From assembly GCA_964016885.1 (NCBI GenBank), contig OZ024741.1, positions 90,520,001 to 90,584,000 of the forward strand: a stretch of DNA of 64,000 bases, read 5' to 3'. The stretch's first letter is position 1; each line of letters opens with the position of its first letter. The DNA is from Eledone cirrhosa. Lineage: Eukaryota. Under the pieces are notes generated by a model. The model was given only the letters and a program-made list of their open reading frames with translations. It was not told the origin of the DNA and made no database searches. This document shows positions 8,420-54,737 of this stretch, piece by piece. Made by a program: the position numbers and the translations under genes.

Positions 8420-9371
8420 AACAAACAATCTGAGGCAATTTCGGCTTGTAAACATAAATTGCACAAAACATTCCTGTATTACAGCCCCACGTTATACCCT
8501 AACGGATAGTACGATCTATACGTGGATATTTTACGTCTCGATGTGGGAGCTAAGTATATGTTTTGTTTATACCTTTACTCATTTGCATAGGTAAGTATAT
8601 ATTATCCGTATGTTTTGTGAAGGTACGTATACCTTCTCGTACGTATATTTGATTGTTATGGCGTAAATTTTTTTTATATATTCTGGTACATATGGTTCGG
8701 CTATGTGTATACGGGAGTTTTGCGTCTGTGTGAGTATGCAGGTTCGTACGCATGTAGAGCGTGTGTATATGTGTACTTCATGTTTTGGTTGACTTACGTC
8801 TCCGAACATTCGTGTATTTACTTGTAGGTATGTGTGTGCGCTTGTTATATACGTATTTATTTATTTATTTATATACGTTTATATAATTATTTATTTATTT
8901 GTATACACGTTTACACACACACACATATTTATATGTGCGTGGTTTTGTTTACCTATGGTAAGGTTTTGCGTATGCTTGTGTATGTACGTTTCTGTTTGCG
9001 TGTATGTATTTATTTATTTCTATTACTTCTGTATTGTATTTATTTACTTTGTTCTTAACTCCGTAGCGGAGATTTATGCACCACCTAAGAGAACATTAGT
9101 TTACGACCTCTATTATACCATAAACGTGGTTCTGTCTTTGCGCGTAATTGTTTTTCACCGCTCCTATTAATTACGTATTATATTCGTTTTTTCCCGTTCT
9201 TAGCCAGCGAACGCTACCACGAACCAAAGTATCGTCTTCCTGTCTTCCTCCGGTTGCAACGTTTTTTGTAATATCCAGTTCTGCGTTTACAGATTGACTT
9301 TGTTAGTTTCAGAAGATCCCGTTAAGGGTGAAAGCAGCGATTCTTTGCTTAAACTTTAATCTGTTATTTTA

Positions 9372-9377
<6 letters not shown>
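8420..9377 (+). mobile_element. 5'-truncated Penelope-like element (last codons of GIY-YIG, 3' UTR, pLTR), ending in (TA)n
   Basis: Reverse complement of 11495-12585; encodes ...SEAISACKHKLHKTFLYYSPTLYPNG*. Confidence 0.85.
9305..9355 (+). ncRNA. Variant type-I hammerhead ribozyme (CAGAAGA core, CUU site)
   Basis: agttt-CAGAAGA-tccc/gttaa/gggt-GAAA-gca...tgc-TT-aaact; distal helix acagattga (9289-97) / ttaatctgt (9356-64). Confidence 0.6.
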
Positions 9378-9450
<73 letters not shown>

Positions 9451-9849
9451 ATGAAAGAGATAGATAAAGAAAGAGACAGAGACTGGAAGAGTCAACCTCA
9501 GTACTTGACCGGCACTTTATTTATCAACCCCAGAAAGATGAAAGCAGAATTAATATCAACAGGATTGTAACCTAGATCGAAGAAAACCGGAAGATTTACC
9601 GCCAAGAATTGGATTGAAAAGACGGGTGCTAAAGTTAACAACAAAATTTGTATTAAATGTGAGAAATACACTGACGAATTCATACTAAACAATTGAAAAC
9701 ATCGACAAATCCTCCAAACAAAATATCAGATAGATCACTGATGGGGTGCCGAGCAAATAATAAAAGAATAAAAGTTCGAAACAGAGCAACTCTATACGCT
9801 TTCTTGGTTTGAAAGTTTCTAATGATTTGAACTGAAATGATTATATCAC

Positions 9850-11494: not shown

Positions 11495-11500
<6 letters not shown>

Positions 11501-13125
11501 TAAAATAACAGATTAAAGTTTAAGCAAAGAATCGCTGCTTTCACCCTTAACGGGATCTTCTGAAACTAACAAAGTCAATCTGTAAACGCAGAACTGAATA
11601 TTTCAAAAAACGTTGCAACCAGAGGAAGACAGGAAAACGATACTTTGGTTCGTGGAAACGTTCGCTGGCAAAGAACGGGAAAAAACAAATAATACGTCAT
11701 TAATAGGAGCGGTGAAAAACAATTACGCGCAAAGACAGAACCACGTTTATGGTATAAAAGAGGTCGTAGACTAATGTTCTCTTAGGTGGTGCATAGAGAC
11801 GTTCTCTGGCAATGAACGAAAAAACGAAGATAATAAGTCATATGTGGAGCGTGGAGAACAATAGCACGCAAAGACAAAACCACGTAAATGGTATAGCAGA
11901 AGTTGTAGACTAAAATCCTAACTAGGAGACCAAATGAATCTCCGCTACAGAGTTAAGAACAAAGTAAATAAATACAATACAGAAGTAATAGAAATAAATA
12001 AATACATACACGCAAACAGATACGTACATACACAAGCATACGCAAAACCTTACCATAGGTATACAAAACCACGCACATATAAATATGTGTGTGTGTGTAT
12101 GCTTGTGTACAAATAAATAAATAATTATATAAACGTATATAAGTAAATAAATAAGTATATAACAAGCGCACACACATACCTACAAATAAATACACGAATG
12201 TTCGGAGACGTAAGTCAACTAAAACAAGAAGTACACATATACACACACCCACCATACGTACGAACCTGCATACTTACGCAGACGCAAAACTCCCGTATAC
12301 ACATAGCCAAACCCTAAATACCAGAATATGTAAAAATTATACGCCATAACAGTCAAATATACGTACGAGAAGGTATACATACCTTCACGAAACATACGGG
12401 TAATATATACTTACCTATGCAAATAAGTAAAGGAATAAACAAAACACATACTTAGCTCCCACATCAAGACGTAAAATATCCACGTATAGATCGTGCTATC
12501 CGTTAGGGTATAACGTGGGGCTGTAATACAGGAAAGTTTTGTGCAATTTATGTTTACAAGCCGAAATTGCCTCAGATTTTTTGTTTAAGATGTGGTCTGT
12601 GGCGTAGAGTATTTCCAGGGCCTCAGCGGCGCAGAGGTCACATGGTCTTTTATTTCCGTTATACGATCTAGCCCTAGCTAGGATCTCCCAGTGTAACTTA
12701 TATTGGGTGTGGTTGTCTTTTAGACTCCAGATATAAGCTGAAAGTGACGTCATATTTCTTCTTAGAGGGTAACGAAAAGAATGGGTATGCATGTAAAGAC
12801 GCTGCTTGAAACTATTGGCGGTTAACCCTATGTAGGCCCTACGGGACGTGGGTGTTACAACCTTACATTTGTAGACAATGTTACTAGAGAGGCATTTCCC
12901 GGATAGGGGCAATCAGCCCGATTCCTACAATTACAGTTAGTACTATCTATAGGGTTGCACGTGTTCCTACGGCTAGGCAGTTTAGCTAAATTTGAAGCTG
13001 TGATGTTATGTGCAAGGTTAGGAGTCGTAGAGTAAGAAATTTTAATAGTATTTCTATTAAAAATTTTACTATATTTATGTGTAGGGGGAAAATGCTTCGT
13101 AATAAGGGAAAGAAAGATCGTCTCA
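11495..13125 (-). mobile_element. 5'-truncated Penelope-like element with frameshifted GIY-YIG endonuclease
   Basis: ORFs 12855..13172 and 12496..12912: KHFP..HKY..IFNRNTIKISYSTTPN, CNCxxxxxC, IVYKC...AYIGLT, CDLC, ACKH; homologous to the 40056 ORF; 3' end in (TA)n. Confidence 0.9.
11517..11567 (-). ncRNA. Variant hammerhead ribozyme (CAGAAGA core), copy of 9305-9355
   Basis: Reverse complement matches 9305-9355. Confidence 0.6.
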
Positions 13126-13363
13126 TATGAAATAATACAGCCAATTTTCCACGCAATACTTTTAGTTAGCACCCCGAACGCATAATTGGGAATATAAACA
13201 CTTATTTCCTAATGTTTATGAGTGAGTTGGAATTTGGCCGGAGTATCGCTAAAAAGCTTTCTCCGATATTGTATTTATATATATATATATATCGGGAACA
13301 ATTTTGAATAGCGCCAGTTCGTAATTTGAATTCGGGAATATTATATTCTTCGAATGAAAAGAT

Positions 13364-13445
13364 CCTTCTGACGAGAGTTTTTCTTTGTAACGGATGCCGT
13401 ATGGAGTCCGTTTATTTTTGAGACTCGAAACCGATTCGGTAAAGG
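13364..13445 (+). ncRNA. Type-I hammerhead ribozyme, canonical core, extended stem II
   Basis: cctt-CTGACGA-gagt...(aacgga/tccgtt inner helix)...actc-GAAA-ccg-att-cgg-TA-aagg; lies between (TA)n runs. Confidence 0.85.
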
Positions 13446-13515
13446 TAACTATAGTAAGTAAAGTTAATTTTTTAAAATTTATTTTGAAACTTTTTCTTAT
13501 TTGCTAAACCTTGAT

Positions 13516-14914: not shown

Positions 14915-15125
14915 TTTGCAGTTTCGGTAAAGCGTTGGGCAATATGCTTTACGTCATATAGTTATGGCGCTTTGCGCTCTGAGTTCAAATCCCACCAAGG
15001 TTAGCTTTGCCTTTCATCCTTTCGAGGTCGATAATATAAAGTACCAGTAACGCACTGGGGTCGATTTAATCGACTTTCTCCTCCCCTCAAAATGTTAGCC
15101 TTGTGCCTAAATCAGAAACCATTAT
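14915..15125 (+). mobile_element. tRNA-derived SINE, family A (other copies at ~9495, 11105, 17381, 28735, 46413, 47546, 55958, 62350, 63110)
   Basis: B-box GAGTTCAAATCC followed by the conserved ctttgcctttcatcctttcgaggtcgata...aagtaccagta; recurrent in the window. Confidence 0.8.
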
Positions 15126-15144: not shown

Positions 15145-15847
15145 ATATAAAGATTTACATATACATAAAGTCAGAGAGATATATGTGGCAACCGGTCACA
15201 ATAATCTCCCGTTGGGTTGAGATGCAATTGGGCGATATTGGGCTGCGCTTTCTAGCAACCAGCCTACTCGACGTAAGCAACTAATCACATTCTTTCTAAC
15301 TTGACCACTGCCACGTCACGATTCTTAGCCATTTTTTGAATCTATTTCTGGCGCGATCGCTTTGGAAAATTAACTGTCCTATTGAGTTTGTCTCCTGATG
15401 AGTTCGTTACTCTAGATTCATCCTTAATAATAGGATATCTCAAAATACGAACGAAACCATGGTAGAGATGTAATTACGGTATGTACACTTTCTTCTAACT
15501 TTAAATTTATACCTAATTGTGTATGGTTGACGGTATATTTGGTCAGTTTCTACATGCTGTTGAAATGTTGGGTAAATACCCTATTGGCGTCAACCGCGAA
15601 GAGGCAGCTTTCGGTTATTTATCAAATATTTCTTCATAGGAGCCTTTATTCTTATAGCGTGGTCTAATTGATTTTTTATATGGTTAATTATGCTAACTGG
15701 GAGAGGAAATGGTATATATTTTATCTAATAATTCTAAGGACATGATTTATGATATATTGCTCTGATTATTTAATTTATTAATTCTTCATTGAGCCACATC
15801 GTGACCGGTTGCCACATATATATCTGTGACTTTATGTATATGTAAAT

Positions 15848-33221: not shown

Positions 33222-33437
33222 AACACACACACATATATATATATATATACATACATACACACACACATATATATATATATCAGTATTCGGCTGCGCTTTC
33301 TAGCAACCAGCCTACTTGTCGTCAGGCACCAATCACAAGCTTTCTGACTTGACCACTGGCCATGGGACAATTCTTAGCCATTTTGAATTCGTTACTGGCG
33401 GGGATCATTTAAGAAAAATCTTTGTCCAATTGAGTTT

Positions 33438-33520
33438 GTTTCCTGATGATTTCGAAACTCGTGAATTTATCCATGATCGGATATTTCCAAAAAGCGAATG
33501 AAATCTCATGGGGTAGAAAC
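33438..33520 (+). ncRNA. Type-I hammerhead ribozyme, diverged homolog of 15391-15468
   Basis: gtttc-CTGATGA-tttcg...cgaat-GAAA-tctc-at-gggg-TA-gaaac; lies within a PLE-like unit at 33280-33945. Confidence 0.75.
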
Positions 33521-33999
33521 ATAATTTTGGTATGTTTACATTTTTTCTTCTAACTTTGATTTTGTACCTAATTATGTATGGTTGGCTATATGTCTGATCA
33601 ATTTCTACGGGCTGTTAGAAATACTGGGTAAATCTTCTGTGGCTGTTGATCGCGGATAACATAACTATCATTTATTTATCTATTGTTTCTTCATAGGTAC
33701 ATTTTTTTAACTTATAGCCTCGTTTAATTGATTTTTTGTGTGGTTAATTATGCTGATTGGGAGGAGAAATGCTGTATATATTTTATCAAATGATTCTATG
33801 GACTTACTTTCTTATATATTGCTCTGATTATTGATTATTTAATTAATTAATTCGTCATTGAGCCATACCGTGAATGGTTGCCAAAAACACATATATATAT
33901 CTATGGCTCTGTCTAGTTTATGTATATGTAAATCTATATATTTTATATATATATATATATAAGGAAAAAAGATGAAACCGAAAATGCAACTGGAGTCTT

Positions 34000-37784: not shown

Positions 37785-39197
<1,413 letters not shown>

Positions 39198-39776
39198 TTG
39201 CTGCACTGGGCCGTTGCTGGCCCGGGATGGAAACCTTTATTGTTTATTTCGTGGTAGTCTCTTTAGTATTTTGGCCCCTTTTGTTGACCCGTCACCGTAT
39301 CATTTACGTACTTATACCTCTTAAAAGGGTCCATGCCTATTCCGTCCCACCTAGTTCTTTTACTTATTTCGTTATTTCTTTCTTTATTTTTTTCTTTACT
39401 TCTTTCTTTCTTTCTTTATTTTATTCTAGCCTAACAATAGCCTGAGACCTAGGTCGTAGAATTTAATTTACTTTACTTTTTTCTTTACACTTATTTGCTT
39501 TTCTTCACTCTCAGTATTTTTTCTTTCCTATATATTTCTACCCCTTCTACCCCCCATTGTTCTACCTACCGTTCCGACTTCCTCCCCCTCCCCCTCCCCT
39601 GTATCTTCTTTGACCTCATGCCCAGCTGTAGCTGGCACTACCAACGCTTGATTGGGTCTACTCCACCCCCGCCCCTCTTTCTCCTACTGGCAGGTTTAGC
39701 CACCATCTCCCCTACTAATTTGCAACCACAGAATTACTACTGATTTTTGACAATCACTTTGACCATATATGGAATT

Positions 39777-39870
39777 ACCCCTTGAGAAGATCGGCTATTT
39801 AAATACCAGGATAAATTTTCATTTAGTCCAGAATTAGCCGTCGAAACGGCTTGAGCTCAGCTGTCGGGGT
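39777..39870 (+). ncRNA. Type-I hammerhead ribozyme with U3:A8 core in the 5' pLTR
   Basis: acccc-TTGAGAA-ga(t)cggcta...tagccgtc-GAAA-cggc-ttgagctca-gctg-TC-ggggt; GUC cut predicted after 39865. Confidence 0.82.
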
Positions 39871-40055
39871 CTTACTGGTTCCTATTACCCACTCTACTAC
39901 CTCAAGTATTGAGTACTTTGGTGCGTTATGGTCCACCTGGTTCCTTACCACATTTCCTTCGTTATCTAGCTCCTACTCCCGTAGTAGAGCACTTTCTGAC
40001 CCTACCACGCCGTATCCAGACTTTTCCGCTAAGCTCAATTCATTTCACCCGCACC

Positions 40056-42227
40056 ATGCGAAAACACAACATTGACTTCTCTACCAAGAACATCCCAATC
40101 CCACCGAAAAAACTTTACCTTCGGATGCTCACGCAAAAAATCGATCTATTTGCGAAAAGACTTAGATGGAGAACTTTTTTCTATGACAGATATTGCGACA
40201 ACCAAGACTTCGGCACCAAGGAGAGATTCGGATTTATTACCTACAAATCTCCGCCCCTGAACCCCTTGCTCGCACCCTTCGAGAATGACCTCTTCCAACT
40301 GGTCAAGAACATTAAATTTAAACCCAGACACAACCGATTCCTACAAAAACTCCGTAGCAACTTAACAGAGTATGATAACACAAATGACATCATGGTGCAT
40401 TCGGATAAAACTGGGAACCTATACTTTGTCAACCCTGACAGATACCACACACTGATCAGGAGCAGCCTAAACTCCACCTATAAAAAGGCCAACCACTCTT
40501 GCATCGAGGACATAAATCGAGATGGACAACAAATCACCTCCAGCCTCGGGGTCGCCGACCGCACGGAACCTCTAGACCCACGGACATCATACTTCACACT
40601 GAAGGACCATAAATCCGATTTTGACCGTAAACGCTCTATCAGGCTTATTAACCCAACGAAGTCCGACATAGGGAGAATCAGCAAAAAAATCCTAGACCGC
40701 GTGATACCAAAAGTCAAGCAACACACCCGACTTAGCCTATGGATCAACACCCAGGAAGTAATCTCCTGGTTCAGCAATATGGAGGATAAACGAGAAACTA
40801 AATTCATACAGTTCGACATAGAGAGCTACTATGCTTCAATCACCTTACCGCTACTTACTGCCGCCTTGGACTTCGCCGAAACACTTGTGCCCATCACCGA
40901 CCAGGAAAGAAAAATCATCCTCCACGCCAGGAAGACAGTCTTACTCTTTGACGACTCTAAATGGATAAAAAGAGCTCCCGACTCACCCTTCGACGTCAGC
41001 ATGGGCGCCACGGATTCGGCGGAGGTCACAGATCTTATAGGATTATTCCTAATAGCCAAACTCACTGATATGTTTCCTGCATTCGGTGGTAGATTGTACC
41101 GTGATGATGGGCTCCTTACCCTTAAAGGGTACAACCCCAGTAGTACAGATCGGGTCCGGAAACAATTAATCAGATTCTTCCGCGACTGGGGATTTAAAAT
41201 AACCCTACAAACGTCCCTGACCCGAGTAAACTTCCTGGACGTGACCCTCGACCTCGAAAACGACCTGTACTACCCATACAGGAAACCTAATGACAATCTG
41301 CACTACATCCACCGCCGATCAAACCATCCTAGGAACATCACAAACAACCTGGTCAAAAACATCTCCCTCCGCATATCCCGTTTGTCAGCTAATGAGCGGA
41401 TATTCGATGAACATGCGCCTTATTACAACCAGGCCCTCAAGCGGAGTGGTTTCCGGGAGGAAATATCCTACTGTCCAGCTCCCATTAGCGGAACCAGCAG
41501 GAGACACCGCCGCTCACGCAATGTAACATGGTTCAATCTTCCCCACAACGCAGAGGTGACAACTCCCATCGGGAAACTATTCTTTAGGCTCATTGAAAAA
41601 CACTTCCCATTACAACACCGCTACCACAACATAATTAACAAAAATACCATCAAACTCTCTTACAGCACTACACCAAACTTCGCACAAAACATCGTCTCCT
41701 CTAACAACAAAAAACTCAACCCCGATGGCAGAAATAACCTAAATAGCAGTGGAGAACCGACCAGGAGGTGTAACTGCCCGGATAGATCTATTTGCCCACT
41801 CGACAATAGATGCAGAAACCGTAATGTGATCTACCAGTGCAACGTGAGGACGGATACCTCCAACAAAGCCTATATAGGACTTACCGCATGTGACTTCAAG
41901 ACCCGGCTATACCAACATAGACATACCTTCCGAAACCCGGCCCGGCGTCACGCTACTACACTTTCGGGCCACATATGGGACCTCAAGGACAACAACATCA
42001 CCTATGATCTCACTTGGAGATTACTGTCCAGAGCCAATTCTTACACGGGAGGACGCCGTCCGTGCAATTTATGCTCGGAGGAAACTTTACAAATGCTGTT
42101 TTCGACGGACCAACTCCTAAACAAGAAAGATGAACTGGTTACTGCATGTAAACATAGATTGCGTAGGACTTACCTCGCCCTCAAACCCCATAATGACCCG
42201 GGGGGGGGGGGTAGACTAGGGCTATAA
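40056..42227 (+). CDS. PLE polyprotein: reverse transcriptase plus C-terminal GIY-YIG endonuclease (723 aa from the first ATG)
   Basis: Uninterrupted frame (track ORF 39909..42227); ATG in GCACCATG context. DKTGN; RT motifs FIQFDIESYY, VSMGATDS, LYRDDG, FLDVTL; linker CNC-x5-C-x5-C; VIY...YIG; CNLC; ACKH. Confidence 0.93.
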   Translation: MRKHNIDFSTKNIPIPPKKLYLRMLTQKIDLFAKRLRWRTFFYDRYCDNQDFGTKERFGFITYKSPPLNPLLAPFENDLFQLVKNIKFKPRHNRFLQKLRSNLTEYDNTNDIMVHSDKTGNLYFVNPDRYHTLIRSSLNSTYKKANHSCIEDINRDGQQITSSLGVADRTEPLDPRTSYFTLKDHKSDFDRKRSIRLINPTKSDIGRISKKILDRVIPKVKQHTRLSLWINTQEVISWFSNMEDKRETKFIQFDIESYYASITLPLLTAALDFAETLVPITDQERKIILHARKTVLLFDDSKWIKRAPDSPFDVSMGATDSAEVTDLIGLFLIAKLTDMFPAFGGRLYRDDGLLTLKGYNPSSTDRVRKQLIRFFRDWGFKITLQTSLTRVNFLDVTLDLENDLYYPYRKPNDNLHYIHRRSNHPRNITNNLVKNISLRISRLSANERIFDEHAPYYNQALKRSGFREEISYCPAPISGTSRRHRRSRNVTWFNLPHNAEVTTPIGKLFFRLIEKHFPLQHRYHNIINKNTIKLSYSTTPNFAQNIVSSNNKKLNPDGRNNLNSSGEPTRRCNCPDRSICPLDNRCRNRNVIYQCNVRTDTSNKAYIGLTACDFKTRLYQHRHTFRNPARRHATTLSGHIWDLKDNNITYDLTWRLLSRANSYTGGRRPCNLCSEETLQMLFSTDQLLNKKDELVTACKHRLRRTYLALKPHNDPGGGGRLGL

Positions 42228-43334
42228 CACCCCACTTGCCGATTTTGCAATGGGTAACCCCTGCTTGCCAAGGAAGACGTAAGATCTTCTTTGTATTCTT
42301 TTATCGCTTCCTTTATTTCCTTCCCCCCTCTCTCCTTAGTCCTTCTACCCCAGCTCTTCTCCTTTGTCGGCGTCTTTTCTCGCCCACCCGAGGCTGCCCT
42401 TTGGCCCCATGTAGCCTTAGTACCCCCACCACCCCCTCCCCTAGTCTATGATAGATTTGGCGGACTCCGCCCTTTATAGCAGTTGGCTTAGACCCCGGAT
42501 ACTTGCCCCCTTTTTCCGACCGCTCCCACTATTCTCTGTGCCCTCTATATTTCTTAGTGGCACTTATGCCTTATTTTTTCGTTTCAGTATCTCTTGCTCC
42601 GCTTTTCTTCTGGGCGGGGTGGATTCTGAATTTATTTCTCCGTATTCTACCTTAATTTCGTACGAACTTTCATGTAGCTTGTTTTAGATCTTTTAGAGTT
42701 AGCATTAGTATATATTTTTCTCGGGACTCAGAATTATTATCTCGTACAAGTTCACTTTGCTGCACTGGGCCGTTGCTGGCCCGGGATGGAAACCTTTATT
42801 GTTTATTTCGTGGTAGTCTCTTTAGTATTTTGGCCCCTTTTGTTGACCCGTCACCGTATCATTTACGTACTTATACCTTTTAAACGGGTCCTTGCCTATA
42901 CCGTCCCACCTAGTTCTTTTACTTATTTCGTTATTTCTTTATTTATTTTTTTCTTTACTTCTTTCTTTCTTTCTTTATTTTATTCTAGCCTAACAATAGC
43001 CTGAGACCTAGGTCGTAGAATTTAATTTACTTTACTTTTTTCTTTACACTTATTTGCTTTTCTTCACTCTCAGTATTTTTTCTTTCCTATATATTTCTAC
43101 CCCTTCTACCCCCCATTGTTCTACCTACCGTTCCGACTTCCTCCCCCTCCCCCTCCCCTGTATCTTCTTTGACCTCATGCCCAGCTGTAGCTGGCACTAC
43201 CAACGCTTGATTGGGTCTACTCCACCCCGCCCCTCTCTCTCCTACTGGCAGGTTTAGCCACCATCTCCCCTACTAATTTGCAACCACAGAATTACTACTG
43301 ATTTTTGACAATCACTTTGACCATATATGGAATT

Positions 43335-43428
43335 ACCCCTTGAGAAGATCGGCTATTTAAATACCAGGATAAATTTTCATTTAGTCCAGAATTAGCCGTC
43401 GAAACGGCTTGAGCTCAGCTGTCGGGGT
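43335..43428 (+). ncRNA. Type-I hammerhead ribozyme with U3:A8 core in the 3' pLTR
   Basis: Same sequence as 39777-39870; cut predicted after 43423. Confidence 0.82.
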
Positions 43429-43506
43429 CTTACTGGTTCCTATTACCCACTCTACTACCTCAAGTATTGAGTACTTTGGTGCGTTATGGTCCACCTGGTT
43501 CCTTAC

Positions 43507-43573
<67 letters not shown>

Positions 43574-43758
43574 ATAGATACATACACACATATATATATA
43601 CTTACACACATATACATTAATAACAATAATAATAATAATAATAACGACAATAATAATAACAACAACAACAATAATAATATACATATACATATATATATAG
43701 ACACACACACACACACATAAACATATCTATACACACACACACACACACACGACAGCAA

Positions 43759-44150
43759 CTAACAGCGCTGCGATCGAATGTGGCTTTTTAGCCCAGCCAA
43801 TGATCTAAAATGTCTTGCACAGAGTCGGCAACCAAAACATTCACTGGGAATAGCCGGCTGTGGTTGGAGTTCATATACTTTTGCATGTCGCTTGAGCCCT
43901 CCTGCTGATCTACATTCTCTACCACATGTTTGGCAAGCATGATGAGTAGCATCTCCAACAGTAGCCTGGTAGTCAACTGGTCTTACTTTATGACTGCGAA
44001 GATGACTTTCGAGTCCAGCTTTGCTTAGGCAGAGTCTCGCACAGACGCTGCATGTCAGCACCATAGGAGGACCCTCGCCGTCTGGAAGTGCAACAGAAAT
44101 GCCCTTCCTCACATCCCGCTTTATTTTCTCGTATGTGATTCGAGATGCCT
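43759..44150 (-). mobile_element. RTE/BovB-like LINE C-terminus with three C2H2-type zinc fingers
   Basis: CSVC...KAGLESHLRSH; CQTC...AGGLKRHAKVY; CRLC...LAGLKSHIRSQRC*; followed by a microsatellite tail. Confidence 0.65.
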
Positions 44151-51386: not shown

Positions 51387-52286
<900 letters not shown>

Positions 52287-54737
52287 GCATATATCCGTAT
52301 GTATTTATATACAGTATGTATTTCATTATGATATAAAGAAATCATTTTGCATGTGTCTAAATGTGAGCGGAATTATATTCTTACTCTTCTACAAAGTAAG
52401 TTGTCAACCACATAAAAGAACTAGACATAGTCTTTGATAACACAATGAAATAGATATAAAATAATGAGGCAAAGATGAAAGCACAGGAAGCATATGTATA
52501 TATATATATAGAGAGAGAGAGAGGGGGGGGGGGGGTTTAGCGAAGCAGATATAGTGTAAGGCGAGCTGTATTTGCACCAAAATCTTCGCTGTTTTCATAG
52601 CCAATATAAAGAGGAGAATACTTTCCAGCAAGAACACCACAAAATCTTCTCCTGAATCTAATTTCAGTAACCCTAATACCTGCACTATCACAGCTATACA
52701 TATATGCACGCGCGCGCGCGCGCGCGTGTGTGTGTGTGTGTCTAAATATTTCATTTATCAAGCTAAGGTCTTCTTTTATAAGAATGAAAAACTTACTGAA
52801 ATTCCCCTTAAAAGACAATTTTCATAGCATATGTACACATTCAGGCACTCACTACAACGCCACGCAGCAGGATGTATTTAAATAAAGTTTTAGAACTGCA
52901 AAAATCTTTGAGGCTGGTATCATGACGCAGAGTTTGACATTCCCTGGGTCTGAGAAGCATTTGCAATGGCTATTTTTAACATTTGATGAGTGTTTTAAGT
53001 CTTTTACACACCATTTAACATGTAAGCGCATGTAGTATTTGACACAAAATGTAAACCTACTGCACCCAATTATATTTAGAACTGCAGAAATTAGATTTAG
53101 AACTACACAAAGAGACGTCAACTGCCCGTTAAAATAATCACTGGCTCCTCGCCTCCTTATCCAAATATATCTAAACTTTGAAAGATGATAATATTAAGAA
53201 TTATAAAGTCGACTGGTCATCTATACAACATGTGTCTCCATACATTAATGTGATATTTGTCTCGCAGATGTATAACAGAGAATTTTGCAGTTTTGAAAAA
53301 AGATCCCAATTGGTGAATACTTGGTGTTAGTAAGACTTTCATCACTATTATTGAGGAAATTTTCACTACCAACTGGTTAAAATAATTCATTTCCTACATA
53401 ATATATTTGTCATATCTTAAATTTATGTAATAAAAAGAAAAAAAAACAACATCTTCTTCAAGAGAGAAACTTGTTTAAAATTAACCGCCTTCTTACGTGC
53501 GGTTTATACATATATGGAATACCTGGAAATATGTGATTTCGCATATTTCGTGTTCTCTGCAAGATAATTAAATAGATGAATATGTAATGTATTTTCTAGT
53601 TTTGCGACAATGAAATACCGATATAATGTTGAATCATATTTCAAAGATTTTTGCATTATTTTTATACATACATACAATGTAACTCGATTTCGAGCAATGC
53701 CATTAATGGATACTTAAGCATGAGTATGATAGTCGTGGCTTCCTAGTCCTGCTAGGGACTTCCCTATAGCCATCAATAACATGCATCGCAAAAAATGTGC
53801 TTGAAGCTTTTTTTAAGTGAGAAAAGGCTTTGCACGGGGCCAGTCCTACTCTCTGAACATCGAATGCATTTACACAAAAAGAACTGGTCTACATCATTAG
53901 ATGCAAATGAAGTCGCAGGTTTTATATCAGAGTCACCTTCTCCTACATACATACACACATACATACATACAAAAAGCACATAGAAAAAGCACGTGTATAT
54001 TCGATAGGACATTTTGGAGAAAAAAATATATATATATTGTGTGTGTGTGTGTGTGTGTCGATCTATATTTTGGTTTTTTCCCATCCTCGTAACTGAGAGT
54101 CAAGGACCATGAAGAATTTATACGTCAATTATTCTCATCGGGGAAAAAGTGACGACGGTGGGCCCCGAATCCTGCTATTATGCGGAAGATGGCTACTGAG
54201 CCACAGCTCAGTAGCCTTCAACACAAGGATGGAACCATTGGCCACTTGAAAGGGTGTCACGTAAATGGCTAAGGAGTTCCATTTATCCCGGTTTAGAAAT
54301 CAGAGTGATTCTTGTCCTAGACATACTGCCAAACAAGACTAACGATCGCTGTCTTCCGGTTTTAGATGGCCGTTGACTCTCCTCTGTTTCAGCTCTTTGA
54401 TGGATTTTCTTTTTCACCCCACAAGGTATCCAAAAATCGCATGCCTCATCAAGCAAGCTTGGTGGGGGACCCGATGATCAAGACAGGTGACAGGTTGTAC
54501 TGAGTTACATGTTACCAGTAGCGCTGGGGATCGACATGACCTAATTACGACAAAATAAATCAAATAAATTTAACCAAGACTACTAAAAGTGGAATATTTT
54601 ACTCATTTATAATTTGAGGATAAATAATACTTTTCGTAAAAGTAATTCCCCCACCCCCACCCTAACTGTCCCTCTCCCTCTCTCATAGTCTCACATACAC
54701 ATTCTTACTATTCCATTTCCAGTATGATCGATGCTTT

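Follow-up and report, generated by a model that had tools for sequence, protein, structure and literature searches.

Does the hammerhead motif in the 5′ pseudo-LTR of an intact retrotransposon, with U3:A8 at the place of the canonical C3:G8 pair, represent a selected variant that still cuts, or a core that has been released from catalysis? We addressed this question in a 64,000-nt stretch of Eledone cirrhosa DNA (the window), whose features are collected in Table 1. The preliminary description had read the motif as a U3:A8 core, UUGAGAA, with GAAA and a GUC site in the pseudo-LTR; our reading of the sequence and the unaided fold agree with it.

Table 1. Positions of the hammerhead motif, its host element and other annotated features, numbered from the first nucleotide of the window.
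Feature	Position	Strand	Remark
Type I hammerhead motif, U3:A8 core	39777-39870	+	part of the 5′ pseudo-LTR; cut predicted 3′ of C39865
5′ core U3 U4 G5 A6 G7 A8 A9	39782-39788	+	read from the sequence
Stem I, 5 bp	39777-39781 with 39866-39870	+	read from the sequence
Stem II, 8 bp, U39791 bulged	39789-39797 with 39835-39842	+	read from the sequence
Stem-loop II, 54 nt	39789-39842	+	inner hairpin predicted at 39809-39829
G12 A13 A14 A15.1 (GAAA)	39843-39846	+	read from the sequence
Stem-loop III, 6 bp with a 7-nt loop	39846-39864	+	near-palindromic
U16.1 and C17	39864 and 39865	+	GUC site; read from the sequence
Motif plus 6 bp predicted to lengthen stem I	39771-39882	+	extension over a 6-nt bulge (39871-39876)
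Second motif copy, in the 3′ pseudo-LTR	43335-43428	+	N3 at 43340; predicted cut after C43423
Third motif copy, in the inverted copy	38187-38280	-	N3 at 38275
5′ pseudo-LTR	39195-39953	+	direct repeat of 42754-43511, 99% identical
3′ pseudo-LTR	42754-43511	+	direct repeat of 39195-39953
Inverted 5′-truncated copy of the element 3′ end, then (TA)n	38172-39197	-	matches 42419-43443
ORF, 723 aa, telomerase-like RT (YRDD) and C-terminal GIY-YIG-type endonuclease (from motifs)	40056-42227	+	frame open from 39855
Pyrimidine-rich 3′ untranslated region, about 1.3 kb, then (TA)n	42228-43511	+	includes the 3′ pseudo-LTR
Second Hydra family, 5′-truncated copies	11497-13118; 8420-9378	-; +	~1 kb of 3′ untranslated sequence
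Type I hammerhead motifs, canonical C3:G8, long stem-loop II	15387-15474; 13360-13451; 33435-33525	+	not reached by Rfam

The hammerhead motif at 39777-39870 was confirmed. Three stems surround the core and stem I is open-ended, as in type I hammerheads, according to the unconstrained fold and the pair probabilities. The sequence holds U4, G5, A6 and N7, A9, G12, A13 and A14, the A15.1-U16.1 pair, H17, and the G10.1-C11.1 pair. U39782 and A39787 form the Watson-Crick pair 3:8; the canonical letters C3 and G8 of CUGANGA are absent, with U3:A8 in their place. Stem I of 5 bp and the bulged stem II of 8 bp were found as first described, but stem III, earlier given as 4 bp, comprises 6 bp with the A15.1-U16.1 and the closing U-A pairs. 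It differs from the absent or 1-2 bp stem III of the minimal dimeric hammerheads of metazoan Penelope-like elements. The predicted extension of stem I pairs 39771-39776 with 39877-39882. Measured against 82 matches of relatives, stem-loops II and III are outliers in size: stem-loop II spans 54 nt versus 10-29 nt, and the distance from A15.1 to U16.1 is 17 nt versus 6-8 nt. As possible sites of a tertiary contact between stems I and II, we noted two stretches of 5 bp in which loop II is complementary to stem I on its 3′ side, a count made without a control and involving a region in which G39877 varies in about half the depth. An alternative core register (C/U-U-G-A-G-A plus an extra A, without N7) had no support and was rejected.

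The MFE fold of 39777-39871 (ViennaRNA) had the hammerhead topology with no constraint applied. Within 39770-39885, the pair probabilities were 0.74-0.98 for stem I, 0.61-0.76 for stem II and 0.48-0.75 for stem III. Among longer contexts, the hammerhead fold was free of cost in 39700-39965 and lay 5.4-6.7 kcal/mol above the best fold in three others. The folding energy of the motif was ordinary compared with shuffles (z from -0.78 to 0.37, with -0.78 for the fold of 39777-39871). A descriptor requiring the U3:A8 core and minimum stem lengths of 5, 6 and 4 bp, the cut-offs of which were chosen once the motif had been seen, gave three matches in the 64-kb window and none in 200 block-wise dinucleotide shuffles. 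No hammerhead family of Rfam matched, either in the window at the gathering score or in 38000-43800 by E-value. As had been anticipated, a CTGANGA pattern search does not find the motif, and it also escaped R1, a covariance model built from 39 C3:G8 relatives. The failure of R1 is expected because its training set was C3:G8 with short loops. Descriptor scans found no C3:G8 hammerhead elsewhere in the element. When two copies of the motif were co-folded, the predicted energy was -69.1 kcal/mol versus -52.6 kcal/mol as two monomers, a gain of 16.5 kcal/mol; by this prediction, the near-palindromic stem-loop III could cross-pair in the manner of the dimeric hammerheads of metazoan Penelope-like elements.

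The host was assigned to the Hydra clade of Penelope-like elements by its motifs and its (TA)n target, set against the published definition (PMC8557442). We read YRDD and IY..YIG in the ORF, and from these motifs the endonuclease appears to be of the GIY-YIG type. Further clade motifs were RWR37 (for RWK), DKT117, C572-C580 (CxCx5C), CNLC670 (CxxC) and CKH698 (CxH). The CxxC and CxH motifs lie around E and N, CCHH is absent, and the endonuclease is C-terminal, all as in the Hydra clade, for which (TA)n is also the insertion target. Homologs of the ORF numbered 1,242 among 8,000 scored candidates, the best of which (P0001) was 53% identical. The predicted structure (pLDDT 87) had TERT, the telomerase RT, as its top match (E 5e-9). 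Pfam searches with the ORF and 39 aligned members, and a PDB sequence search, returned nothing relevant; precomputed PF26215 and PF28514 assignments on homologs were not recovered in our Pfam search. Identity with a Naiad element was rejected on account of the C-terminal place of the endonuclease and of motifs that are Hydra's. The element unit measures 3,558 nt from predicted cut site to predicted cut site and exceeds the <3 kb of most Hydra elements, which is a tendency in the source and not a strict rule. N3 lies 274 nt upstream of the ATG, versus about 170-255 nt in relatives.

The three motif copies are parts of one recent insertion and are 99% alike. By self-comparison, the other copies diverge from the 5′ repeat at 6 of 691 nt in one case and at 7 of 759 nt in the other, and (TA)n is present at both outer ends of the insertion. 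The pseudo-LTRs arise from a partial tandem, and together with the inverted 5′-truncated copy they form the arrangement usual for Penelope-like elements (PMC8557442). The preliminary description was right that the same core occurs in all three copies. However, copies from one insertion are not independent support, and their shared core is uninformative on selection. The insertion's own 3′ ends are the equivalents of 39885 and 39953. About 250 nt of flank, a microsatellite mosaic with a unique 30-mer, occurs as inverted duplicates on either side of the insertion (37921-38171 on the minus strand and about 43512-43779 on the plus strand), which may be a trace of the formation of the inverted copy or an assembly fold-back.

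Variation inside the family was read from the contigs of 4 of the 24 listed runs, aligned on 39620-40120, with summed contig depth not equal to copy number. U3 and A8 were the majority letters, and no change of A8 was listed in any of the four runs. The loose contig ends of diverged subfamilies, read at positions 7 and 8, keep A8, with C or A at N7. T39782C combined with A8, giving a mismatched C3.A8, made up 24% of the summed depth in run X1 (29 contigs) and 39% in run X5 (1 contig); judged by equal depth values, the X5 contig carries five further changes. Thus, A8 appears to be fixed, whereas position 3 is seemingly polymorphic. This would follow if G8A preceded a compensating C3U, or if one subfamily has reverted. 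As the C3.A8 subfamily was amplified, the 3:8 pair is not needed for amplification. The C3.A8 copies may nonetheless be non-autonomous passengers, the contigs being too short for linkage to an ORF.

Other changes in the motif strengthen or break individual pairs. T39862C (71% of the summed depth in X1, 75% in X5) turns a G.U of stem III into G-C, and T39834A (36% in X1) would extend stem II. A39790C (30%) and A39790T (13%, both in X1) break pair 10.2, A39859T (27%) breaks the closing pair of stem III, and G39877C/T (about 52%) breaks the extension of stem I. Eleven places of the motif are variable, including one core base versus 1.6 expected, a difference that is not significant. At 39671 and 39997 the window copy carries private letters that the read pool does not share. 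Runs X6 and X7 contained near-identical sequence at a depth of 2-11, perhaps carried-over DNA, and were not scored as independent species. From 39824 to 39965 the summed depth in X1 and X5 was at least ten-fold above that of the upstream part, with many short or diverged 3′ ends. We rejected the jump at about 39824 as a biological boundary, as diverged 5′ halves may fail to align.

A broader comparison was possible with 80 related loci. The best 80 of 363 related stretches in metagenome contigs gave 79 of them, and genome contigs added L080, a short fragment in which a C3:G8 motif is visible by eye; no relative of the element was found in the viral contigs searched. The R1 search gave 87 matches, 84 with E under 0.05; 39 of the matches had also trained R1, and many loci are near-copies. 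At E under 0.05, R1 called the core in 66 of the 80 loci: 63 were C3:G8, two U3:A8 (L026 and L036), one G3:C8 (L041, 4043-4090), and none mismatched. Among the 14 loci without an R1 call, several lack untranslated regions. L024, missed by R1, carries G3:C8, a swap familiar from mutagenesis, in its 3′ untranslated region, so that a swapped 3:8 pair was present in 4 of 67 called loci, one of them read by eye. An open-core descriptor returned the same two U3:A8 loci. Faulty detection is an unlikely reason for the absence of mismatches, since a model trained on C3:G8 would be expected to penalise single changes less than double ones.

The tree was built from 40 of 83 rows; excluded were near-copies and the majority of rows lacking a core call. 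On it, the three U3:A8 cases require three changes, forced by well-supported branches, and grouping them, with four neighbours of unknown core admitted, was rejected (p-AU 0.009). By this tree, the U3:A8 cores of the window, L026 and L036 arose separately. L024, with G3:C8, clusters with the U3:A8 locus L036. We must also note what counts against selection in L026 and L036: they contain 2 and 4 in-frame stops at 30% G+C, and the commonest decay changes are C-to-T plus G-to-A. The way in which positions 3 and 8 covary within the clade is better support for non-decay than either the copies or the ORF. The earlier conclusion that the variant core is not decay is probably right on these grounds, and both reasons originally given for it are weak. 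The ORF (723 aa) is uninterrupted, as had been stated, but gives no warrant for ribozyme function, because the C3.A8 subfamily was amplified here and because hammerhead catalytic mutants of PAc, a Poseidon element of Anolis and the one Penelope-like element examined in vitro, inserted normally, as reported in the available text of Frangieh et al. 2024 (PMC11167929).

The novelty implied by the preliminary description is not supported, as the U3:A8 swap has been known since 2011, and in Penelope-like elements since 2014. According to the available text of Perreault et al. (PMC3088659), U3-A8 is a natural covariation of hammerheads, called compensatory, and is active in vitro, for which the authors cite other work. 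Cervera and De la Pena (PMC4209133) reported U3-A8 in the Cercyon pseudo-LTR hammerheads of Schistosoma mansoni, with about 1,300 matches. When mutations were combined in all pairs in one type III hammerhead, G3:C8 was the one swap to give rescue, and the other double mutants of this region had low activity (PMC9901934, as far as available). The Hydra rows of file S2 of Craig et al. 2021 are C3:G8 in 26 of 26 cases (PMC8557442); no U3:A8 could appear there, because a canonical descriptor was used. We found no report of U3:A8 in Hydra elements in the literature searched, which fell short of most subscription papers. Within it, the first U3:A8 in Hydra elements and the oversized stem-loops II and III are new here, and minor; with the swap already known, the finding changes little.

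Four published systems come closest, each compared as far as its available text goes; three of them are set out here, and PAc below. The Cercyon hammerheads (PMC4209133) share the swap, the place in the pseudo-LTR, type I, a stem I of 4-5 bp and a stem II of 7-8 bp. They are minimal, with little or no stem III, whereas the motif described here has a 6-bp stem III and a 54-nt stem-loop II, lacks an unpaired base between A9 and 10.1, and belongs to a different clade. The published Hydra hammerheads (PMC8557442) are alike in clade motifs, (TA)n targets and a type I motif near the 3′ end; in contrast to the large loops and 3,558 nt found here, their stem-loops II and III are short and the elements mostly <3 kb. 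The natural U3-A8 variants (PMC3088659) show the same covariation, with no tie to Penelope-like elements in the available part of that report.

Taken together, we consider it likely that the locus carries a young Hydra-clade hammerhead whose 3:8 pair has changed from C:G to U:A, likely under selection, and whose predicted cleavage after C39865 is probably slower than that of a C3:G8 ribozyme. In a transcript entering from upstream, cleavage in the 5′ repeat would leave a 5′-OH on G39866, with 190 nt remaining to the ATG. If the 3′ copy were cut as well, after C43423, a unit RNA of 3,558 nt would be released, by established hammerhead chemistry. Stem III would be long enough for cleavage as a monomer; as it is near-palindromic, dimeric pairing between the 5′ and 3′ copies is also conceivable. 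In the read contigs, junctions of element 3′ ends with (TA)n are concentrated at two places, 39885 (75 contigs in X1) and 39965 (313 contigs), which lie 20 and 100 nt downstream of the predicted cut site. As the copies end past this site, the RT template would be uncut, or re-joined at the 3′ copy, and a slow ribozyme would then be tolerable. Such a template would agree with the in vitro work on PAc, where the main template was unprocessed RNA (PMC11167929, available text). A slow but real cutter would also fit both the activity described in PMC3088659 and the scan in PMC9901934. In PAc, too, the pseudo-LTR hammerhead precedes a pair of 3′ ends between which a ‘tail’ is defined, but its motif is C3:G8, has no real stem III and needs the element's own protein to cut. 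The tail here, between 39885 and 39965, is 80 nt long, about twice the 30-40 nt of PAc and of other Penelope-like elements.

It is possible, although unlikely in our judgement, that the fold is kept while cleavage is largely dispensable, the RNA providing a signal for structure or recognition close to the RT start sites, with a core that drifts (G8A, then mostly C3U). The fixed A8 beside U or C at position 3 fits such drift, and so do the 3′ ends lying downstream of the cut site. In PAc, moreover, the mutants inserted normally and no RNA ends were reported at the cut site (PMC11167929, available text). The second Hydra family of the window, whose thumb and endonuclease share 52% amino-acid identity with the main ORF, points in the same direction: its hammerhead-like motif (N3 at 11562 on the minus strand and at 9310 on the plus strand) is identical in both copies and has C3:G8 with U4 changed to A. 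Its hammerhead fold lies 3.5 kcal/mol above the best fold. Against this reading, however, none of the 66 called loci has a mismatched 3:8 pair. Furthermore, G3:C8, which takes two transversions, was seen twice, and in the window copy the remaining ten core bases are unchanged. The C3.A8 subfamily may also consist of non-autonomous passengers.

A related and rather doubtful reading extends to the host's Hydra lineage as a whole, in which catalytic constraint on the core would be falling away, with the fold both retained and enlarged. The motif would then act in vivo as a recognition structure for the element protein, with cleavage slow or dispensable. The core series behind this proposal consists of U3:A8 here, the amplified C3.A8 subfamily and U4A in the sister family. 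These altered cores provide a natural set for testing whether retrotransposition needs cleavage by pseudo-LTR hammerheads, and pattern searches fixed on CUGANGA undercount hammerheads in Penelope-like elements.

Mutational decay of the window copy or of a recent ancestor is improbable. C3U and G8A are both transitions of the commonest kind, and the window copy has its two private differences, but U3 and A8 are the majority letters of the read pool and not private, and the ORF is intact. By a simple count, two random changes among 11 core bases would strike the pair 3:8 about once in 55. A chance match to a relaxed hammerhead pattern, for which the ordinary folding energy and the missing Rfam and R1 scores might speak, is very improbable given the shuffled windows without a match, and the motif sits where relatives carry their hammerhead, in an element with no C3:G8 alternative.

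The host genome is microsatellite-rich and animal-like. At 53064-53318 on the plus strand, a weak similarity (E 2e-4) to the endonuclease part of a Hydra homolog is perhaps an old fragment. At 51398-52308 we observed a 447-nt inverted repeat, its arms 98% complementary and 17 nt apart. Short repeats at 15020-15080 and 9490-9530 may resemble a cephalopod SINE. Finally, of the canonical C3:G8 motifs in Table 1, those at 15395 and 33443 look mutually related.
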